DNA from: Patescibacteria group bacterium
GTDB taxonomy: Bacteria; Patescibacteriota; Microgenomatia; UBA1400; PJMF01
Reading direction: 5' to 3'
Assembly: GCA_052035325.1 (NCBI GenBank)
Contig: JBPOHR010000011.1
Span: 8,131-72,130, forward strand
DNA: 64,000 bases
The notes below the pieces were generated by a model. The model searched no databases, was not told where the DNA came from, and saw only the letters and a program-made list of their open reading frames with translations. The position numbers and the translations under genes are program-made. Shown piece after piece: positions 1,843-54,664 of the stretch; positions within the stretch are counted from its first letter, which is position 1; every line of letters begins with the position of its first letter.

Positions 1843-1915
1843 GGGCCGTTAGCTCACTTGGTAGAGCGCTACTATGGCATAGTAGAGGTAATCGGTTCGA
1901 TCCCGATACGGTCCA
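1843..1915 (+). tRNA. tRNA-Ala (anticodon GGC)
   Basis: GGGCCGTTAGCTCACTTGGTAGAGCGC... cloverleaf; acceptor GGGCCGT/ACGGTCC; anticodon loop ATGGCAT gives GGC; T-arm GGTTCGATCCC. Confidence 0.8.
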
Positions 1916-2052
1916 CACTAGTTTTGTCAGGATTTAAGAGCGTGTGATAGGTAAAGTTGGTTAATAGCGTGCAGAACCGCGTTTATACACGATTTACTAC
2001 TGCACTTTTGCAGAAAAGTATCCACAACATTGAGAATTAGTTAAAAAAGTCA

Positions 2053-2079
2053 TTAGCAGTCGATATACTTGACTGCTAA
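2053..2079. promoter_or_regulatory. 27-bp palindromic site TTAGCAGTC-N9-GACTGCTAA (copy 2)
   Basis: Same arms as 75-101 with a different 9-bp spacer (GATATACTT); an isolated left half-site TTAGCAGTC also occurs at 1176-1184. Confidence 0.5.
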
Positions 2080-2226
2080 CTAGGTATATAGGGTAAAAAC
2101 ATTGATATATCAAGCTATTTTTGAAGCATCTCGCAAAATACCGTTTTTTCGGCTTTTTTCAGTAAGAACGTAGATTTACTACTCCCAATTGCATGATCAG
2201 AATGATAGAAAAAACATAGTACTACA

Positions 2227-4968
2227 CTAAACAGTAGCAGTCGTTGCATTCGCTGCAACTGGTTCTTCTTTATAGGTCAACGCAACAGCAACAACACGAT
2301 CACTGCCATTCATGCGCATCAAAATCACACCTTGTGTCGGACGAGTGAGCACGGGAATGGTTTTAGCGTCGATTGGTAATTTGATGGTAATGCCGCCATT
2401 GGTACTCATCACAACCTCTTCATGTTCGTGTGTGACCATGCGAGCGGTGGCGACGTTGCCAGTGCGGGCGGTGATGTCAGAAACTTTGACACCGAGGCCA
2501 GCACGCTTCTGTAGCGGGTACTCTGATAATGCCGAGCGTTTGCCCAGACCTTTTTCGGTGACCACAAGCAGTTGATGGAATTGACCAGCTGTTGGCTTTT
2601 CGCTATCGAGTTGAGGTGAGAAAGCCTCCACACCAATGACGTAGTCGTCTTTTTGCAGTGTAATGCCGCGGACGCCTTTGGTGTCACGGTTGGAGTCTTT
2701 GATTTCAGCCTCGGAGAAGCGAATAGACTTGCCATGATAGGTAATCAGCATCACGTGGTCAGTTCCCGTAGTCAATTGTCCCCAGACAAGTTCGTCACCA
2801 TCGTTGAGGACGATGGCCACAATGCCGTTTTGGCGGATGTTTTGGTAGAGTTTGACAGCAGTTTTCTTGACTAAACCACATCGAGTGGCGAGGGTGATGA
2901 AGTTATTAGCGTCTTTGGTTTCATCGAGGGTGAGGATGGCTTGGACGGTTTCCTCTGCTTTGAGGTTGATTAGGTTGACTACCGCGGTGCCTTTTGCCTG
3001 GCGACTCGATTCTGGAATGTCATAGGCTTTAAGTTTGAAAACTCGACCCTGATTGGTGAACAGGAGCAGCGTCTCATGTGTGTCGGCTGTGAGGAGCGAT
3101 TTGACGGCATCTTCTTCTTTCATTTTGACACCGGTGGCACCTTTACCACCTCTGGCCTGACTGCGGAAAGCGGAGGGGCTGAGGCGCTTGATGTAGCCTG
3201 TTTCGGTCAGAGTGATGACGGTAGGTTCGTTGGCGACGAGATCTTCTTCAGAAAATTCACCGACTTTGCTCTTGACCACTTTGGTGCGGCGATCGTCGCC
3301 GTAGAGGGTCTTGAGCTCATTGGTTTCGTTGACAATTACCTCGAGAATGAGATCGGGATGACTCAGTAATTTGATTAAGGTATCGATGCGCGCTTTGAGT
3401 TCTTTATACTCGTCTTCGATCTTCTGACGTTCGAGAGCGGCTAGACGTTTGAGCTGCATTTCCAGAATGGCTGTAGCCTGTACTTCGGACAGACCAAACT
3501 TGGACATTAAGGCAGCTCGGGCAGTATCAGTGTCAGCTGAGCGACGGATGGTTTCGATGACGTCATCGAGGTTTTTGAGGGCAATGAGTAGGCCTTCAAG
3601 GATGTGAGCGCGGTCACGAGCCTCGCCGAGTTCGAATTGGGTGCGGCGGACGGCGACGAGCAAGCGATGTTGGATGTACTCACGCAAAATTTGCTTAATG
3701 TTCATCAATTGAGGTGTGCCCTCACTCGAGAGCGCCACCATATTGACCGGGAAACTGACTTGGAGTTCGGTGTGTTTGAAGAGTTGATTGAGGACCACTT
3801 TGGGTCGAGCGTCGCGCTTCAGATCAATGGTGATTTGCAGACCAACACGGTCAGAGTCGTCATTGAGGTCGCGGATGCCTTCCAGCTTCTTATCGCGGAC
3901 GAGGTCGGCGATTTTCATGAGGAGCCGAGCTTTGTTTACTTGGTACGGCAATTCAGTAACAATGATCTGGAAGCCACCTTTTTTGGTTTCTTCGATGCTG
4001 GCTTTGGCACGGATGACTACTTTGCCTTTGCCGGTGGCATAGGCTTCACGGATGGCTTTGACGTCGTAAATAATACCAGCTGTCGGGAAGTCTGGGCCCT
4101 GAATGTGATCCATGATTTGATCACTGGTAATTTCACTGGTGAATGTTCCAGCTAGTAACTTGGGATCGGTGGCAAGTACTTCATCGATTTTGTCGGAGGT
4201 TTTCTCGAGTGTGGTGGAAGATTTACCGGCTTTGATAGTGGCAATGATGGCATCACAGACCTCGTTGAGGTTGTGAGGTGGGATTTTGGTGGCCATACCT
4301 ACCGCAATACCTTCCGAACCCATCAGCAACAAATTTGGCAAGCGACCTGGAAGGACGGCCGGCTCTTGCATTGAGCCGTCAAAGTTATCGACAAACGGGA
4401 CGGTGTCTTTGTCGAGGTCAATTAAGAGTTCTTGAGAAATCTTGGCCAGTCTTGCTTCGGTGTACCGCATGGCGGCTGGACTGTCGCCATCAATCGAGCC
4501 AAAGTTTCCTTGACCATCGATTAAGGGATAGCGCATGCTGAAGTCTTGGGCTAGCCGGACCAGTGCACCGTAGACTGGCGCATCACCGTGTGGATGGTAA
4601 CGACCCAGTACGTCACCGACGATACGGGCACATTTCTTGTACGCACTGGTATGGTGGAAACCCGACTTGTACATCGAGTACAGGATGCGACGATGGACGG
4701 GCTTCATGCCGTCACGCACATCGGGTAGAGCTCTGGAAACGATGACACTCATGGCGTAGTCGAGGTAGGACTTCTCCATTTCACTGACGATGGAAATGTA
4801 CTTCAACTTACCAAAGCGACTTTCTTCGATAGTGCCGATGGGCGTAACTGACTCGGAGGTGGTATTTGTTTCCACGGGAGTTGCTATCTCGGAAGTGGTA
4901 GCCTCAGTAGAGGTGTCACTCTCGGTGGTATCGGTTAGTTCGTCGTCGCGGATTTGGTCATCAGTCAT
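2227..4968 (-). CDS. gyrA: DNA gyrase subunit A
   Basis: YLDYAMSVIVSRALPDVRDGMKPVHRRILY signature, QRD/breakage-reunion region and C-terminal beta-pinwheel repeats; about 60-aa acidic/Thr-rich N-terminal extension if the first ATG is used. Confidence 0.95.
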   Translation of the reverse strand: MTDDQIRDDELTDTTESDTSTEATTSEIATPVETNTTSESVTPIGTIEESRFGKLKYISIVSEMEKSYLDYAMSVIVSRALPDVRDGMKPVHRRILYSMYKSGFHHTSAYKKCARIVGDVLGRYHPHGDAPVYGALVRLAQDFSMRYPLIDGQGNFGSIDGDSPAAMRYTEARLAKISQELLIDLDKDTVPFVDNFDGSMQEPAVLPGRLPNLLLMGSEGIAVGMATKIPPHNLNEVCDAIIATIKAGKSSTTLEKTSDKIDEVLATDPKLLAGTFTSEITSDQIMDHIQGPDFPTAGIIYDVKAIREAYATGKGKVVIRAKASIEETKKGGFQIIVTELPYQVNKARLLMKIADLVRDKKLEGIRDLNDDSDRVGLQITIDLKRDARPKVVLNQLFKHTELQVSFPVNMVALSSEGTPQLMNIKQILREYIQHRLLVAVRRTQFELGEARDRAHILEGLLIALKNLDDVIETIRRSADTDTARAALMSKFGLSEVQATAILEMQLKRLAALERQKIEDEYKELKARIDTLIKLLSHPDLILEVIVNETNELKTLYGDDRRTKVVKSKVGEFSEEDLVANEPTVITLTETGYIKRLSPSAFRSQARGGKGATGVKMKEEDAVKSLLTADTHETLLLFTNQGRVFKLKAYDIPESSRQAKGTAVVNLINLKAEETVQAILTLDETKDANNFITLATRCGLVKKTAVKLYQNIRQNGIVAIVLNDGDELVWGQLTTGTDHVMLITYHGKSIRFSEAEIKDSNRDTKGVRGITLQKDDYVIGVEAFSPQLDSEKPTAGQFHQLLVVTEKGLGKRSALSEYPLQKRAGLGVKVSDITARTGNVATARMVTHEHEEVVMSTNGGITIKLPIDAKTIPVLTRPTQGVILMRMNGSDRVVAVALTYKEEPVAANATTATV

Positions 4969-5867: not shown

Positions 5868-7901
<2,034 letters not shown>

Positions 7902-24766: not shown

Positions 24767-25741
24767 ATGTTAGATGAACAGAAATCTAAAAGAATTTTTA
24801 TTGAATCTCCACTCTTAGATGTAAATCAAGTAGCTGCCTTTTTGTTTTCACTTCGACCAGAAAGGCCCCAAAGAGTGGTTGCATCACGATATGTTGCACG
24901 GGCTAAACTGACAAGTAGAGACAGACAAAACACAAAAAAAGCATATGAAAATGGTTCGGCTACGGAATTTGCTTCACTATATGAATGGGATCCTTCTGTT
25001 GTTAGGTCATCATTGATTGATAGCATAGGTCCTTTTGTCGAGGCTTTTGATGATACTAATAAAGATAAAAAAAAGTCTTGGATTTTGTTGGTTGGTTGTG
25101 GAACGGGCAGGGATTTCATGGAACTTTGGAAAAGAGGATTTAATGCTCTAGCTTTTGATATCTCTATGGCAATGATAGAAAATCTTAAAAGAATTTTGAC
25201 AAATTCATTAGTGCCACCTCATAATGTAGCGTTAATGTTGAACGAAGTTGCTCGTGACCTCAATCAGGTGGTCTTTGTTGCGGATGTAATGGACCCCTCT
25301 TGGAGGCGAAACAGCAGCGTTGCATCAGGTGAAGTTGATTTATTTGATGCTGTATTTGCTGAAACTGTTTTAGGGCATCTAGACAAGGAAGAAGTATTTG
25401 AATTTTTTGAAAGATATTCTAACAATCTGTCACAGGGTGGAATAATACGAGCAGGTTTGAGAATTTCCAAGAGTGGAAAAGTGTTTATTCTTGAAGACAG
25501 TCTTGGATCAAGAAGTTTTACAACGTGGAAATTCGAAGATCTATGGTTGACTACTCTAACGAGAAAAGGTACACAAATTACAGATTATGATCACATGGGC
25601 GAGCTGGGTGAATTACTCAAATATCTAGCAGAAATAGGTTTGAGAATTATAAAAATCTACACGAATAAACATCCATGCTCCACAGAAGAAAACCCCCGAC
25701 CAGATACATTAAATCTGATTTTACAAAAAGTAACTAGATAG
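24767..25741 (+). CDS. Class I SAM-dependent methyltransferase (AT-rich island)
   Basis: Motif I LLVGCGTGRDFMEL and post-I acidic residue ..AFDIS; the ORF is about 30-38% GC vs about 48% in flanking DNA. Confidence 0.6.
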   Translation: MLDEQKSKRIFIESPLLDVNQVAAFLFSLRPERPQRVVASRYVARAKLTSRDRQNTKKAYENGSATEFASLYEWDPSVVRSSLIDSIGPFVEAFDDTNKDKKKSWILLVGCGTGRDFMELWKRGFNALAFDISMAMIENLKRILTNSLVPPHNVALMLNEVARDLNQVVFVADVMDPSWRRNSSVASGEVDLFDAVFAETVLGHLDKEEVFEFFERYSNNLSQGGIIRAGLRISKSGKVFILEDSLGSRSFTTWKFEDLWLTTLTRKGTQITDYDHMGELGELLKYLAEIGLRIIKIYTNKHPCSTEENPRPDTLNLILQKVTR

Positions 25742-25780
25742 AATACGTCACGATTATTTTTTCTCTGATATAATATAGCA

Positions 25781-26365
25781 ATGAATATTTATTTTACTGC
25801 AGCTATTTTTCAAATGCCGACACATGGTGGCTATTACGCAAAGATAATTGAGACATTAAAAAAACAAGGCCATAACGTCGTTCACGATCATATTACCGAT
25901 TATACTCCCGATGATTTTGGATCTCTTGTAAGTCAGACAGACGAGAACAAGAAGCAATACTACTCCAAGGTATTGAAATGGATTTCCAAGGCAGACTTAG
26001 TAGTTGCAGAATTGTCATTTCCCTCAACTTTGAATGTAGGACATGAGGTAACGATGGCTCTGAGTAAGGGTAAGCCTGTAGTTGGTCTATACTTTAAAGA
26101 TCAAGAATCTTTTTTCTTTGAAGGGATTCAATCAGACAAATTTGTTTACGAATCATATACAGCTGAGACCTTAGCTGAAACACTTGAGCAAGCACTAGAA
26201 TATGCTCAGGAAATTTCAGATACCCGTTTCAATTTCTTCATCTCCCCTTCTCTCTCGCACTACCTAGACTGGGTGTCACAAACAAAAAAAATCCCCAGGT
26301 CTGTCTACCTTCGTCAACTGATTGAAGAGGACCGTGAGCAGAATAAAGCATACTTTGATGCGTAG
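25781..26365 (+). CDS. Nucleoside 2-deoxyribosyltransferase-like (NDT/DNPH1-like) protein
   Basis: MNIYFTAAIF start and ...LNVGHEVTMALSKGKPVVGLY resemble the NDT 'MKIYLAGPFF ... GTAFEIGYA.A.GKPV' core; paralog of 33398..33835. Confidence 0.5.
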   Translation: MNIYFTAAIFQMPTHGGYYAKIIETLKKQGHNVVHDHITDYTPDDFGSLVSQTDENKKQYYSKVLKWISKADLVVAELSFPSTLNVGHEVTMALSKGKPVVGLYFKDQESFFFEGIQSDKFVYESYTAETLAETLEQALEYAQEISDTRFNFFISPSLSHYLDWVSQTKKIPRSVYLRQLIEEDREQNKAYFDA

Positions 26366-32042: not shown

Positions 32043-32387
32043 TTACTTACCACTTTTTGCCACCGTTTTGCGCACTTTTGGCGCTGCCACTTTGGCAGCA
32101 GTGTTCACTTTAGTGCTGGCTTGGTTGGCTTTGGTGCCAGCTTGTGACTTAGCTTTGGCAGATTTGGCTGCGGCTGTTACTTCAGTTGTTGCTTCAACCT
32201 TTGTCTCGGCAGAAGTTGCTTTGACCGCAGTTTTATCAAGACCAATGAAACGCATGAGTTCAGCCACAAAACCTTGTTTATGGTTGGGGACAGCTGCGTG
32301 AGCGTCTTTCTTCAGTTTGGGCGAGTTGCCACGGCGACGTTTGCCTTGTTCAACACGTGTGATTTTGTTCTTTGGTAGTGCACCCAT
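32043..32387 (-). CDS. Lys/Ala-rich basic protein (histone H1-like/nucleoid-associated?)
   Basis: C-terminal AAKSAKAKSQAGTKANQASTKVNTAAKVAAPKVRKTVAKSGK low-complexity basic tail. Confidence 0.35.
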   Translation of the reverse strand: MGALPKNKITRVEQGKRRRGNSPKLKKDAHAAVPNHKQGFVAELMRFIGLDKTAVKATSAETKVEATTEVTAAAKSAKAKSQAGTKANQASTKVNTAAKVAAPKVRKTVAKSGK

Positions 32388-32482: not shown

Positions 32483-33388
32483 ATGGATAACAAAGAAGAA
32501 TCACCAAAACACCTTAAAGTAGCGGTGGTCGGGGCACCATGCTCAGGGAAGACTTCGACTTTACAGTCGTTGCGAGCATTATTGTATAGATTTCCGAATG
32601 AAGCGGAGTATGAGTGTGCTGGGCTAAATCCAGAATATTGGCAAAAGGTTGATAAAGCATTTCTTAGAGAAGAAGATGGGTGTGGTTTGTTGGAAGAGGA
32701 TCCTGACTTTTTCCCATTTTGGGTAATTGATGAAGCATGGCGAGATTACCAGTTTATTGCTCCACTGCTCTTTCAGTTGCTTTCTGGTCAGATTAGCCTT
32801 GAAGAAGCTCAACTAAGATTACCGTCTATTAACTTGAATCATGACGATTACTATTCACCCCGCTACACTGTGCGTGACCTTGCAGCTGATGCGCAGTTGG
32901 TTGGACTGGCAAGTAGACCTCAACATATGATTGAAGCTCGAAGAACATTACAACAGGAACTATTTCGTGTGCAGGTACATAGGGAATACTCTCCAAGACC
33001 CAGCTGGATGCAAAACAGGCTCTCGGTGACAGCAGTAGACGGTGGATTACTTAATATTGTGGCATACAACCCTGATATGCAACTATCCGACTATCCAGCA
33101 GCTTTGAGAAAGGCAAAAGGAATTGTCGACAATCAACAATTACTTGGCTCGTATTACGCGATTATTTTACTTGAGACTTTGGTAAATCTTGCACCTCCTG
33201 CATATGAAAAATATTATTTTGGCAGAGATCGGCTAGACACACCAGATGAGGCAAAAAAGATGCATGTGAGACTAGAAGCGTTAACAGCTGATCATCCTCG
33301 AGTTCTGAGATTGCCCGCAAGGATGGAGTATCAAGATAAATGCTATGCCATGTTGGACTATATGAAAGGTTTGCTTGTGGGAAAGTGA
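32483..33388 (+). CDS. P-loop NTPase of unknown function (nucleoside/nucleotide kinase-like?)
   Basis: Walker A AVVGAPCSGKTSTL at the N-terminus; no helicase/ABC motifs; about 42% GC. Confidence 0.45.
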   Translation: MDNKEESPKHLKVAVVGAPCSGKTSTLQSLRALLYRFPNEAEYECAGLNPEYWQKVDKAFLREEDGCGLLEEDPDFFPFWVIDEAWRDYQFIAPLLFQLLSGQISLEEAQLRLPSINLNHDDYYSPRYTVRDLAADAQLVGLASRPQHMIEARRTLQQELFRVQVHREYSPRPSWMQNRLSVTAVDGGLLNIVAYNPDMQLSDYPAALRKAKGIVDNQQLLGSYYAIILLETLVNLAPPAYEKYYFGRDRLDTPDEAKKMHVRLEALTADHPRVLRLPARMEYQDKCYAMLDYMKGLLVGK

Positions 33389-33397
33389 GCCTGTCGA

Positions 33398-33835
33398 TTA
33401 CTTTTCGGAATGTTGATCAGAGAAAAATTTTTCTAAAATTACCTGAACATTTTCGTCCGTATACATCTGCAGATTAATTTCATCTTTTCTGCCTTGCAAC
33501 ATCAGACTAGCATTCTGGTATGTTTCTCCCCAATGAATACTAAGCAATGGCTTATGTAGCGCAAGTGCCTTATCGATAAAAAAACCTGCGCCAAAACTAG
33601 GAGTGGTACATTCTGTAATTAATACATCAGCTTTCTCCAATTTTTGGACTGCTTCCGAGTAGACTGTTTCTGCATCAAGATTTGTTTGCCAGTGAGGGTC
33701 AGATGCATACGTGGGGTCGACAAGTTCTTTAGTAAGTACTTCATGTCCCATTTTTTCGATAAGTGATACGATGCTTTGAGTTACTGGTAGCGTATGTCGT
33801 TCTCTAGTAACGGATGTGCTAAAAAAGACTTTCAT
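33398..33835 (-). CDS. Nucleoside 2-deoxyribosyltransferase-like protein (paralog of 25781..26365)
   Basis: MKVFFSTSVT ... IVSLIEKMGHEVLTKELVD ... LEKADVLITECTTPSFGAGFFIDKALALHKPLL aligns colinearly with 25781..26365 (IIETLKKQGHNVVHDHITD ... ISKADLVVAELSFPSTLNVGHEVTMALSKGKPVV); AT-rich. Confidence 0.5.
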   Translation of the reverse strand: MKVFFSTSVTRERHTLPVTQSIVSLIEKMGHEVLTKELVDPTYASDPHWQTNLDAETVYSEAVQKLEKADVLITECTTPSFGAGFFIDKALALHKPLLSIHWGETYQNASLMLQGRKDEINLQMYTDENVQVILEKFFSDQHSEK

Positions 33836-33873
33836 AGGCAGAGTATATCGATTTTTTAACGAGAGTACTACAG

Positions 33874-35871
33874 TTAATTGGCGGCAATTTTCTCGTTGTT
33901 CGATTGTGCAAATTTCCAGATAGTTTCAAGTTTATTTTTTTGCTTCAATTTTTCAAATAGTGTACGTGTTTGGAAGATTAGATCTGCATTTGTCCAGGTA
34001 GCAAACTTCAAATCATCAAACCCATGTTGCTGCGTCCCAAACAGGTCCCCTGCCCCGCGGTGCTCGAGGTCAAGTTCAGCTAGCTGTTGGCCGTTGGAAA
34101 TATTGGCAAACTTCTCGAGACGGTTGTCATGTGTCTCCTGATCAGTGGTTGTGCGAAACAGCAAACAGTACCCTTGTTGACCAGCGCGCCCTACTCTACC
34201 CCGGAGTTGGTGAAGACTTGCCAGACCAAAGCGCTCGGCTCCTTCGATCACAATAATGCTCGCCGCGGGTAGATCAACGCCGACTTCGACGATTGGTGTC
34301 GTGACGAGTACATCAAGTTGCTGACTGTAGAGTTGCTCGGTAATAGATTGCTGCTCTTTTTTGGTTTGACGTCCGTGAAGTGCTCCTACTCGAGCTACTT
34401 TGCCCAGTGCGGCCTTAACTTCAGCCACTTTGTCGTTGACAGCGGCCACGTTGGCGAGCGCTTCGGTTTGGGCAGGGTCGATAAAGGGACAAACGATCAG
34501 TACCTGGAGTGGTTGGTGAGCAGTTTTTGCTGTAGTAAGTTGAGTGGCGATCCATGAATACGCATCAGCCCGCTTCGTTTCGGCAGTCACCCAGGTTTTG
34601 ACAGGAATCCTACCTGCCGGCAGTTCGTCAATCACACTTAGGCTCAAGTGACTGAAGATGGTAAGCATCAGACTCCTGGGGATGGGTGTGGCTGTCATGG
34701 TAAGGACGTGTGGCCGGTAGTCTTGCGTGCTTTCCCAACTGCGCTGTTTGACGCCAAACCGATGCTGCTCGTCGTAGATTACTAAAGCAGGTTTGATTGT
34801 TTCCAGTTTATTCAAGAGCGCATGCGTGCCCACGAAAAAAGTGGGTTGTGCGGGTAGTTTGAACACTTGTTTTTTGCCGGGTTGGGTGGTGACAAGTTGC
34901 ACTGGGATATCGGGGAAAAGTGTGGAGAGTGTCTCGAGATGCTGCTCGGCAAGGATTCTCGTAGGTGCGATGAGCGTGGTGTGGTGTCCGGCCTGAATTG
35001 TCTGCCAAGCAGCTGTGCCCGCGACAACCGTTTTCCCCGAGCCCACATCACCAACAAGCAGTCGATTCATGGGGGTTTTTTCCTCGAGATCGGTCAGAAT
35101 TTCGTCGATGGATCGTACTTGAGTTTTGGTTAGGGCAAAAGGAATCTGTGGAGGAGGGTTCGTTTTTGGAATGGGGTTGGCTGGTTTTCCTTTGCTCCAG
35201 GCGGCTTTTTGTTCTTGAGAATGTTTCATTAGGCTTAATAGCTCCTCAAGAGCCAACCGCTCGCGGGCTTGAGTAACCAGCTCTTCGCTATCAGGAAAAT
35301 GTAGCTGATGGAGTGCTGGAGTCAGTGCCAAACCCTCGAAGCCAGCTTGGATAGCTTCATCATTGATGTCGTCTAGCCCATCGAGCAATTGTTTGAGAAT
35401 TCGTCGGACACTACCGCCTTTGAGACCTGGTAACTGAGAGTAGATCGGGACCAGCCGGTCAGTGTGGATTGTCTCACCTCCTTCAGCTTCAACGACGGGT
35501 TGCATCATGGTGCCTCGATCGTTTACTTCGCCGCAAAATAGGAATCGCTGGCCGACTTTCAACTTATCGACAATGAACCGATTGTTGAACCACATCACTT
35601 TCAGCCGACCTGTGTCATCGGCAATCACTGCCGACTGGATGGATCGAGGACCTTTGTAGTAGTTACTGGCGCGGATCACACTGGCGGCAATAGTGATCGT
35701 TTGATTAAGTGGTGCAGTGGCAATCGTTGCGCGCTGTGAGCGATCTTCGTAGCGGAGCGGAACCCAGAGGAGCAAATCTTGCACCGTGCGGAGACCTTTT
35801 TTATCGAGTTGAAGCTGCGTAGCTGGACCGATGCCTTTGACGGTGGCAAGAGAGTCGGTGAGCGCGTACAT
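33874..35871 (-). CDS. recG: ATP-dependent DNA helicase RecG
   Basis: N-terminal wedge/OB domain, Walker A LLVGDVGSGKTVVA, DEQH box VIYDEQHRFG, helicase C motifs QLRGRVGR. Confidence 0.9.
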   Translation of the reverse strand: MYALTDSLATVKGIGPATQLQLDKKGLRTVQDLLLWVPLRYEDRSQRATIATAPLNQTITIAASVIRASNYYKGPRSIQSAVIADDTGRLKVMWFNNRFIVDKLKVGQRFLFCGEVNDRGTMMQPVVEAEGGETIHTDRLVPIYSQLPGLKGGSVRRILKQLLDGLDDINDEAIQAGFEGLALTPALHQLHFPDSEELVTQARERLALEELLSLMKHSQEQKAAWSKGKPANPIPKTNPPPQIPFALTKTQVRSIDEILTDLEEKTPMNRLLVGDVGSGKTVVAGTAAWQTIQAGHHTTLIAPTRILAEQHLETLSTLFPDIPVQLVTTQPGKKQVFKLPAQPTFFVGTHALLNKLETIKPALVIYDEQHRFGVKQRSWESTQDYRPHVLTMTATPIPRSLMLTIFSHLSLSVIDELPAGRIPVKTWVTAETKRADAYSWIATQLTTAKTAHQPLQVLIVCPFIDPAQTEALANVAAVNDKVAEVKAALGKVARVGALHGRQTKKEQQSITEQLYSQQLDVLVTTPIVEVGVDLPAASIIVIEGAERFGLASLHQLRGRVGRAGQQGYCLLFRTTTDQETHDNRLEKFANISNGQQLAELDLEHRGAGDLFGTQQHGFDDLKFATWTNADLIFQTRTLFEKLKQKNKLETIWKFAQSNNEKIAAN

Positions 35872-45894: not shown

Positions 45895-45968
45895 GAACTC
45901 GTAGCTCAGTTGGTTAGAGCGCTTCATTGACATTGAAGAGGTCAGAGGTTCGAATCCTCTCGAGTTCA
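45895..45968 (+). tRNA. tRNA-Val (anticodon GAC)
   Basis: GAACTCGTAGCTCAGTTGGTTAGAGCG...; anticodon loop TTGACAT; T-arm GGTTCGAATCC; acceptor GAACTCG/CGAGTTC. Confidence 0.8.
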
Positions 45969-45988
45969 CAAGATAGTGAAAACAGTAC

Positions 45989-50260: not shown

Positions 50261-50334
50261 GGCACGGTACCAGAGTGGTCCAATGGCTAGGTCTGCAAAA
50301 CCTCAGTTCAGGGGTTCAAATCCCCTCCGTGCCT
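50261..50334 (+). tRNA. tRNA-Cys (anticodon GCA)
   Basis: GGCACGG...anticodon arm AGGT-CTGCAAA-ACCT gives GCA; T-arm GGGGTTCAAATCCCC; acceptor GGCACGG/CCGTGCC. Confidence 0.7.
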
Positions 50335-50385
50335 CAATTTGTTAACTTCTTTACTCCAAGTAAGAAACACGCTAACCTAGTACGC

Positions 50386-54291: not shown

Positions 54292-54311
54292 AGTAGCGTA
54301 TAATCATCTCA

Positions 54312-54655
54312 AGCGTAACCGGGTAATGGCTTTTGTTTTCTTCGGAAAACAAAAGAGGAAAGTCCGGACAGCTGGACATAGGGTGCCTGGTGAAAGCCAG
54401 GGCGTGGTTCGCTTCAGTGAACTGCGACAGTTAGAGCTGTAGAGACGAGCCGGGTGGCGCCGGGTGAAACGACCAAGCTTCTGGGTCAGTGCGTACGGCT
54501 TCGGCCAGGGCGTACTGAGCAATCCTCCCCGCTGCAACTGCCGATCTTCACCTAAATGGAGATGTCCCCCATTGCTCCTTCGTGGAGCGAGGTGATAAAG
54601 CCGCAGGCATAGATAGATCATTGCCCTCGACAGAATCCGGCTTACAGGTTACGCT
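54312..54655 (+). ncRNA. rnpB: RNase P RNA (bacterial type A)
   Basis: P4 strand GAGGAAAGTCCGGAC, 3' P4 strand ACAGAATCCGGCTTA, P1 pairing AGCGTAACC/GGTTACGCT, GNRA/T-loop-like GTGAAA elements; about 344 nt. Confidence 0.8.
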
Positions 54656-54664
54656 TATAGTGAT

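Follow-up and report, generated by a model that had tools for sequence, protein, structure and literature searches.

A gene for a P-loop, kinase-like nucleoside triphosphatase (NTPase) and a gene for a small protein with the fold of DNPH1/Rcl that lacks the catalytic triad of this enzyme lie side by side in a 64,000-nucleotide stretch of DNA from a Patescibacteria group bacterium (assembly GCA_052035325.1, contig JBPOHR010000011.1, positions 8,131 to 72,130; the whole stretch is referred to as the window), and the two are adjacent in all nine lineages that were examined. This adjacency is the main new result. Both proteins are variants of known folds. The pair probably forms a conserved accessory two-gene module of a narrow set of bacteria of the candidate phyla radiation (CPR); it is very rare, and its hosts are uncultivated. 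CPR bacteria rely heavily on scavenged nucleotides, and many small genes in their genomes lack annotation.

In the window, the NTPase open reading frame (ORF) occupies 32483..33388 on the forward strand and encodes 301 amino acids, a long-form relative of Pfam AAA_28. The DNPH1-like ORF (145 amino acids) occupies 33398..33835 on the reverse strand, and the two convergent stop codons are separated by a spacer of 9 nt (33389..33397). An earlier note, made from the letters of the window alone, had described two convergent ORFs, one of them with a P-loop. Both the arrangement and the P-loop (GAPCSGKT) are confirmed.

A gene pair in changing surroundings

The nine lineages, each with a long-form NTPase, are the window and the loci L001, L005, L006/L013 (Ca. 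Pacebacteria UBA6180), L011, L018, L020, L021 and L022. In every one of them the immediate neighbour of the NTPase gene is a DNPH1-like gene whose product has lost the nucleophilic glutamate. The usual arrangement is convergent, and in seven of the nine lineages the genes overlap tail to tail at their 3' ends by 4-47 nt: 4 nt in L011, 8 nt in L005, 9 nt in L020, 17 nt in L006/L013, 33 nt in L018 and 47 nt in both L001 and L022. The window pair, with its 9-nt gap, is convergent without overlap, and in L021 the genes are divergent with a gap of 108 nt. A tenth lineage, P0019, is represented by a 1.5-kb contig on which a convergent, overlapping ORF stands beside the NTPase gene and is cut by the contig end.

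What surrounds the pair is not conserved. Comparison of the loci by tblastn found no shared flanking genes, and the flanks differ in every lineage. Because of this, and because adjacency survives the flip in L021, the pair has been held together through full reshuffling of its surroundings and one inversion. The two proteins themselves have diverged to different degrees, with identities across lineages of 18-39% for the NTPase and 46-69% for its DNPH1-like partner.

Relatives of the pair are labelled Pacebacteria or Paceibacterota, both CPR. They are found seldom: a pattern scan for the DNPH1-like family gave one locus in 185,579 GTDB species genomes, four in JGI metagenomes (two of them new) and none in IMG/VR. 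Homologs of either protein were likewise absent from 50,697 phage records searched by tblastn and from IMG/VR.

Two divergent members of known folds

The small protein is a relative of DNPH1/Rcl, the 2'-deoxynucleoside 5'-phosphate N-hydrolase 1 or 5-hydroxymethyl-dUMP N-hydrolase of animals (PDB 2KLH, 4FYH, 8QHQ). DNPH1/Rcl is its best match in the PDB by phmmer (E=3.2e-11, residues 3-139 onto 5-141), and a profile of its family also matches DNPH1/Rcl (E=6.5e-15) and no other family. Besides DNPH1, no chain of the nucleoside deoxyribosyltransferase (NDT) superfamily, including MilB, was recovered in these PDB searches at E≤10 with the single sequence or E≤1 with the profile. The homology is full-length, both proteins having about 145 residues. 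Against Pfam PF05014 (Nuc_deoxyrib_tr) the window protein scores 16.0 bits, under the gathering cut-off of 28.8; six of the 15 family members match this domain at E≤1, and NCBIfam has no match for either the NTPase or the 145-residue protein. The 15 members are clusters, the query included, that came from a homolog search among 5.8 billion entries. A 1541-residue protein, P0024, was considered as a possible fusion and rejected, since it is an unrelated repeat/DUF6294 protein.

The chemistry of DNPH1 depends on a triad of Tyr24, Asp80 and Glu104 (human numbering), the last being the covalent nucleophile. Glu55 and His56 act as helpers, the phosphate is held by Ser98 and Ser128', and the base is sandwiched by Ile29 and Ile76 (PMC10603095). 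A triad of the Tyr/Asp/Glu type has been described as characteristic of the NDT superfamily (PMC12884076; PMC10603095). At these three positions the window protein has F4, A63 and F86. For the nucleophile (human E104, rat E93), the position is Phe, Trp or Leu in all 15 members. The Asp80 position is occupied by Glu, Ala or Ser (Glu in 9 of 15), and the Tyr24 position by Phe in the 13 closer members, with Tyr only in the most distant ones, the methyltransferase-linked P0015 and P0016. The helper Glu55 is replaced by Lys in 14 of the 15. At the position of Ser128', which is not conserved, the window protein has Ser and most members Pro or Thr. Other parts of the ligand site are retained. The phosphate-binding P79-S80, at the position of human Ser98, is invariant in the family, the base-sandwiching positions remain hydrophobic, and the K-P motif and D77/E82 of DNPH1 (rat numbering) are kept. 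Three polar residues, R11, H101 and N121, are 100% invariant in this family of about 55% overall identity and are absent from DNPH1. The family differs from DNPH1 also in being bacterial rather than animal and in always adjoining a gene for a kinase-like NTPase or a methyltransferase.

With Phe, Trp or Leu at the nucleophile position in all 15 members, the catalytic loss is family-wide and old, a fixed trait of a distinct family rather than a lesion of a single genome. Loss of the glutamate of the NVGHE motif had been suspected in the earlier note; it is borne out by Phe86, and in fact the whole Tyr/Asp/Glu triad is gone. The suggestion made there that the protein may bind its ligand rather than cleave it is, given the missing triad, the most economical reading of the sequence. 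Because the defining catalytic residues have been tested for and are missing, the predicted 145-residue protein should not be annotated as a deoxynucleoside 5'-monophosphate N-hydrolase.

Several glycosidases with the DNPH1 fold act on nucleoside 5'-monophosphates (NMPs), and their genes are paired with those of nucleotide-metabolism enzymes; these are the MilB and BlsM CMP (hydroxymethyl-CMP) N-glycosidases and phage DmtZ. MilA and MilB, for example, form a pairing of this kind, in which the DNPH1-fold enzyme goes with a nucleotide enzyme. In MilB, a Phe at the Tyr24 position admits ribose and a Glu at the His56 position reads cytosine (PMC10603095). The corresponding residues of the window protein are F4 and E37, although by analogy this likeness is only a hint about the ligand. 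DmtZ is a dAMP N-glycosidase/transferase paired or fused with DutZ (PMC12884076). In contrast to the window protein, MilB, BlsM and DmtZ keep the Glu nucleophile and are active enzymes, DmtZ being as yet without a solved structure. The partner differs as well: a hydroxymethylase or a dUTPase accompanies MilB or DmtZ, whereas here it is a P-loop kinase-like protein.

The NTPase is more difficult to place. A word-indexed homolog search returned only the query itself, and a profile of 12 NTPase sequences used in the same way found only three proteins. Phmmer found no match in the PDB, and the profile found P-loop matches only. The family became visible by another route. Genes that adjoin homologs of the small protein proved to be relatives of the NTPase; the one in L005, for example, matches it with E=3e-54 and 35% identity. 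When 1.84 billion cluster representatives were scanned exhaustively with HMMER, 16 relatives besides the query came out, about ten of them long forms of 288-323 residues and several of 195-252 residues. The lesson for method is that a word-indexed search made the NTPase look like an orphan, and that gene neighbourhood together with exhaustive HMMER recovered its family.

That family is related to Pfam AAA_28 (PF13521), which includes the ribosylnicotinamide-kinase domain of NadR ("NadR/Ttd14 AAA"). Seventeen of 18 aligned relatives match it at E≤0.01 (best E=3.2e-24). The window NTPase scores 24.8 bits, where the cut-off is 27, with only the P-loop aligned, and it directly matches short AAA_28 proteins by phmmer (E=4e-5 to 8.5e-4). 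It has no match to Pfam Thymidylate_kin or dNK at E≤1, and a match to the PHROG thymidylate kinase (E=0.0036) covers the P-loop only.

AlphaFold2 gave an unusable model from the single sequence (predicted local distance difference test score, pLDDT, of 35), and a model with pLDDT 79.2 and a predicted template-modelling (TM) score of 0.80 from an alignment of 18 sequences. The latter has the predicted fold of thymidylate kinase (TMPK) and the deoxynucleoside kinases (dNKs), in which a P-loop core of five strands carries a LID and an NMP/nucleoside-binding lobe. Foldseek placed thymidylate kinases and deoxycytidine kinase at the top of its PDB matches (E about 4e-5, target-normalised TM score about 0.6), and a search of a viral structure library returned the same kinase classes. 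The NTPase is thus probably a divergent P-loop enzyme of the AAA_28 type with the fold of thymidylate/deoxynucleoside kinases and NadR. The earlier note had called it an orphan, which does not hold, as it is one of a small branch of long forms with kinship to AAA_28; the description as kinase-like is upheld by the nucleoside/nucleotide-kinase fold of the predicted model. The note had named mapping to an unrelated, well-characterised family as a refutation; AAA_28 is no such family, being kinase-like and poorly characterised.

The motifs of the window NTPase are a Walker A loop G17-A-P-C-S-G-K23-T (32531..32554), E84-A-W after strand 2, Q157 and E168 on a long helix, a Walker B-like D186-G-G, Y195, E231-T232, a LID-like R250-L-D-T-P254, and K286. 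Helical inserts, at approximately residues 36-78 and 100-150, account for some 100 extra residues. Most of these motifs recur in the long forms, in spite of a mean identity of only 26% (range 18-39%). Conserved are the Walker A sequence G-x-P-C-x-G-K-T, Q157, E168, Y195 and E231-T232; D186 is Glu in one lineage, the Glu of E-A-W is present in eight of the nine lineages, and a segment R250-L-x-x-P...A at the LID position is invariant. The Cys within the Walker A loop is near-invariant and common to the long forms and their short AAA_28 relatives, with Tyr only in L001. By hhalign, E-A-W is paired with the V-D-E-D-W segment of a genuine dNK protein from Pfam (probability 78%).

Where short AAA_28 relatives have D-R-G, the long forms have D-G-G or D-G-S. 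The D-R-G of the short relatives resembles the DR(Y/H) motif of TMPK, and, to judge from the aligned motifs, the "clamp" arginine is missing from the long-form NTPases. Beyond this substitution, the long form differs from AAA_28 in its approximately 100 extra residues and in its linkage to a DNPH1-like gene. Compared with TMPK, dNK, deoxycytidine kinase and deoxyguanosine kinase, the fold is common; the NTPase is 10-17% identical, about 100 residues larger, and has Gly in place of the Arg of their DR(Y/H/F) or ERS motifs. Literature searches found no account of a pairing between an AAA_28 kinase and a protein like DNPH1, nor of a DNPH1 family lacking the Glu, and wherever a source gives these proteins a name, it is that of a hypothetical protein.

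Neighbouring genes and a second locus in the window

In some relatives the pair lies among genes of nucleotide metabolism. In L022, a tightly packed run of dNK, cmk, cmk and the DNPH1-like gene (2044..4218, reverse strand) ends with the DNPH1-like gene, whose ATG overlaps the preceding stop codon (ATGA). The dNK matches PF01712 with E=6.8e-14, and the two cytidylate kinases are assigned with E=2.2e-62 and 3e-69. The tandem cytidylate kinases are paralogs of 46% identity, and the "dNK" has an unusual P-loop, GGDCLRIGKT, as well as a V-D-E-D-W segment resembling the E-A-W of the NTPase. In L006/L013 (806..10438), thymidylate synthase (thyA) is the divergent neighbour of the NTPase gene, and genes for dihydrofolate reductase (DHFR), dUTPase and dCMP deaminase are all within 5 kb of the pair in L006. 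With these genes, this CPR relative can make dTMP from dCMP or dUMP, which qualifies the assumption that nucleotide biosynthetic steps are missing from such organisms. The nucleotide-salvage role proposed in the earlier note draws support from the dNK-cmk-cmk run of L022 and from the thyA, DHFR, dut and dCMP-deaminase neighbourhood of L006.

NUDIX genes occur in two other lineages, with two following the NTPase gene in L005 and one nearby in L011. In L018 the DNPH1-like gene adjoins a gene for an Mrr-type restriction endonuclease (4305..4763), and a phage-integrase-family gene (6269..6867) is about 2 kb off; no other context of the pair hints at an island of mobile or defence genes. Against PADLOC-DB there was no significant match, the best (E=0.04) covering only the P-loop of the NTPase, and the DNPH1-like protein had none.

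In the window itself, the gene upstream on the strand of the DNPH1-like gene is a 665-residue ORF (33874..35871, reverse strand) that appears RecG-like by eye. Its stop is separated from the start of the DNPH1-like gene by 38 nt (33836..33873). A promoter and terminator scan gave nothing above shuffled expectation, with no consensus in this gap, so that read-through from the 665-residue ORF into the DNPH1-like gene is possible. On the other side, a Lys/Ala-rich ORF of 114 residues (32043..32387, reverse strand) is divergent from the NTPase gene, with a gap of 95 nt. It has no Pfam match at E≤0.001, and its last two thirds are low-complexity sequence rich in Ala, Lys and Thr, like histone-like or ribosomal-protein extensions. 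The window also carries housekeeping RNAs: a class A RNase P RNA (54311..54660, 117.9 bits) and tRNAs for Ala-GGC (1843..1916), Val-GAC (45895..45969) and Cys-GCA (50261..50335).

The GC content of the pair is 0.416, compared with a window mean of 0.465 (standard deviation 0.029), and falls at the 6th percentile of windows of equal size. The AT-rich patch described in the earlier note is therefore real but modest. The second locus discussed below (24767..26365) is lower still, at 0.375, and both loci with NDT-like genes are within the most AT-rich stretches of the window.

This second locus holds a paralog of the small protein, a DNPH1/NDT-like protein of 194 residues (25781..26365, forward strand) that scores 36.3 bits against PF05014, above the cut-off of 28.8. 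Two colinear, divergent NDT-like paralogs had been recognised in the earlier note, with a list of shared motifs that proved correct. The two proteins align by BLASTP from residue 1 of both (41.6 bits, E=6e-10, 23% identity over 142 residues), and a hidden Markov model (HMM) of the 145-residue family, run against all six-frame ORFs of the window and the loci, picks the ORF at 25781 (E=2.6e-10). DNPH1/Rcl is the best PDB match of each, with E=2.8e-09 for the longer one. The 194-residue protein keeps equivalents of the Tyr, the His and the Glu nucleophile, the last in its NVGHE motif, and has Val at the Asp80 position. This motif aligns with GAGFF of the 145-residue protein, in which the Glu has become Phe86. 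The longer paralog also has a C-terminal tail of 55 residues with no PDB sequence match and a weak match to RHH_3 (residues 148-182, E=0.02). If this weak match is real, an NDT fold would be joined to a ribbon-helix-helix (RHH) domain, as expected of a transcription regulator that senses a ligand.

Upstream of the 194-residue paralog by 39 nt is a gene for a class-I S-adenosylmethionine-dependent methyltransferase (24767..25741, forward strand, 324 residues) that matches Methyltransf_25 and Methyltransf_11 above their cut-offs. It is the partner of this other NDT-like gene and stands outside the module at 33 kb. The earlier note had contrasted the partners of the two NDT-like genes, methyltransferase in one case and NTPase in the other. 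Within the window this is true, but the methyltransferase and NDT-like genes do not form one conserved module. The most distant members of the 145-residue family, P0015 and P0016, are also preceded by methyltransferase genes on the same strand (L008 1568..2962, L009 382..1776 and L010 548..1912). These encode proteins of 454-464 residues, with an N-terminal region of about 300 residues that has no Pfam match and a C-terminal class-I methyltransferase domain. The L008 and L010 methyltransferases are 39% identical to each other, and that of the window shows no detectable kinship to the one in L008 (E=1.9). A conserved module of methyltransferase and NDT-like protein was rejected for this reason, and the recurring order of the two genes is, as far as their sequences tell, an analogy.

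Possible functions of the pair

With about even confidence, the pair can be read as an accessory module for pyrimidine (deoxy)nucleotide salvage or pool control, made up of a kinase-like enzyme and a non-hydrolytic NMP-binding partner. The NTPase most likely hydrolyses the gamma-phosphate of ATP or transfers it to a nucleoside or nucleotide, because the Walker A Lys, the Glu after strand 2, the Walker B Asp and the LID-like Arg are kept. For the DNPH1-fold protein, binding of a nucleoside 5'-monophosphate with no cleavage is most likely, because the Tyr, Asp and Glu positions are now hydrophobic while the phosphate-binding Ser loop and the base-stacking hydrophobic residues remain. Gene context in relatives suggests a pyrimidine nucleotide as the ligand, e.g., (d)CMP, dUMP or dTMP. 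The pseudo-glycosidase would then be a partner that binds a ligand for the kinase, sets its specificity or regulates it, and the two may physically interact. The deoxynucleoside salvage of Lactobacillus, a salvage-dependent organism, combines an active NDT that works on nucleosides with deoxynucleoside kinases. The putative logic of an NDT-superfamily protein beside a kinase of the dNK fold would be similar here, except that the NDT-fold partner is a phosphate-binding protein of the DNPH1 kind and has no nucleophile.

A number of observations weigh against a salvage or pool-control module. The genes are convergent, and hence form no operon and do not imply co-expression. Long-form NTPases are without the Arg of the D-R-G or TMPK "DRY" motif, and the NTPase of L022 is also without the Glu after strand 2, so that kinase competence is not assured. 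Pfam scores of the window protein are under the gathering cut-offs. P0015 and P0016 occur without the NTPase, directly downstream of a protein with a methyltransferase domain. Neighbours concerned with nucleotide metabolism are found in only three or four of the nine lineages, and those in the window are the RecG-like ORF and the unannotated Lys/Ala-rich ORF. A mirror-tree (Mantel) test gave no co-divergence of the two proteins (r=0.04, p=0.43); identities among the kinases are saturated, however, so that this test carries no information.

A bolder version of the idea is doubtful. The Glu-less protein could be an obligate subunit of the kinase that binds the nucleotide and possibly gives the clamp arginine in trans, through the invariant R11, to make a two-component nucleoside/nucleotide kinase specific to CPR bacteria, or the pair could form a new, likewise CPR-specific NMP-processing enzyme (e.g., an NMP phosphorylase of the NDT fold that is independent of a nucleophile). 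If the obligate-subunit version were true, a glycosidase turned pseudoenzyme would have been recruited as a specificity or regulatory subunit.

Unlikely, in our estimate, is that the DNPH1-like protein is still an enzyme, cleaving or transferring at the N-glycosidic bond of NMPs without a nucleophile of its own (by phosphorolysis or direct attack of water) and using R11, H101, N121 and K95, with the kinase supplying the NMP. The route from nucleoside to NMP to base and sugar phosphate would make kinase and NMP-glycosidase a logical two-step catabolic pair. The AMP phosphorylase of the RuBisCO nucleotide-salvage route in CPR bacteria and archaea, for example, yields ribose-1,5-bisphosphate. Complete conservation of the three new polar residues, which DNPH1 lacks, would fit an enzyme, as would the Glu found at the Asp80 position in 9 of 15 members; the window protein, however, has Ala there, and Phe, Trp or Leu among the residues under the sugar would be typical of a pocket for binding, not for catalysis. 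No NDT-fold enzyme is known to be active when the Glu nucleophile is missing, and the lack of a precedent counts against this explanation. It is less likely again that the NTPase is a non-orthologous replacement of a core kinase (a dTMP or nucleoside kinase) in reduced genomes, with the DNPH1-like gene an incidental neighbour. Thymidylate kinases are the top structural matches, thyA stands directly beside the NTPase gene in L006 in divergent orientation, and a TMPK-like segment, D-x-G-x-x-x-x-x-x-Y, is present. An essential core enzyme would hardly be so rare (about ten long-form clusters in 1.84 billion and one locus in 185,579 species genomes) or evolve so fast (18-39% identity); in addition, the DRY clamp Arg is missing, and L022 already has a dNK and two cmk genes alongside.

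A conflict module, either toxin-antitoxin-like or anti-phage, would have the kinase as effector or sensor and the NDT/TIR-like domain as sensor or antidote, and domains of the NDT, TIR and SLOG folds are known nucleotide sensors in defence systems. The slightly low GC, a pair that moves as a unit between variable genomic positions, a fast-evolving kinase with variable inserts, and the nuclease and integrase genes of L018 would all be in keeping with such a module. Nevertheless we consider it very unlikely, as neither PADLOC nor the phage records and IMG/VR gave a significant match or a homolog, the genes are convergent and not co-transcribed, the small protein (55% identity) is well conserved, unlike typical antitoxins, and the contexts in L022 and L006 are those of housekeeping nucleotide metabolism. 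There is also a small chance that the adjacency is inherited synteny without functional coupling and that the genes are independent. Convergent orientation and the mirror-tree result would agree with this, and the carriers may all be one CPR clade. Against it, the pair persists in nine lineages where the flanks are fully reshuffled, the inversion in L021 keeps the genes adjacent, and identities of 18-39% in the kinase imply a separation long enough for neutral synteny to decay.

Two "hypothetical proteins" can thereby be assigned to a fold and a family and described as conserved partners, one a DNPH1-derived pseudo-glycosidase and the other a divergent AAA_28 kinase-like enzyme. The rarity of the pair and its uncultivated hosts limit the immediate impact. 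If the two proteins do work together, the pair would be a new accessory route or control point in the pyrimidine (deoxy)nucleotide salvage of CPR bacteria, and a clean natural case of an NDT-superfamily enzyme repurposed for ligand binding.

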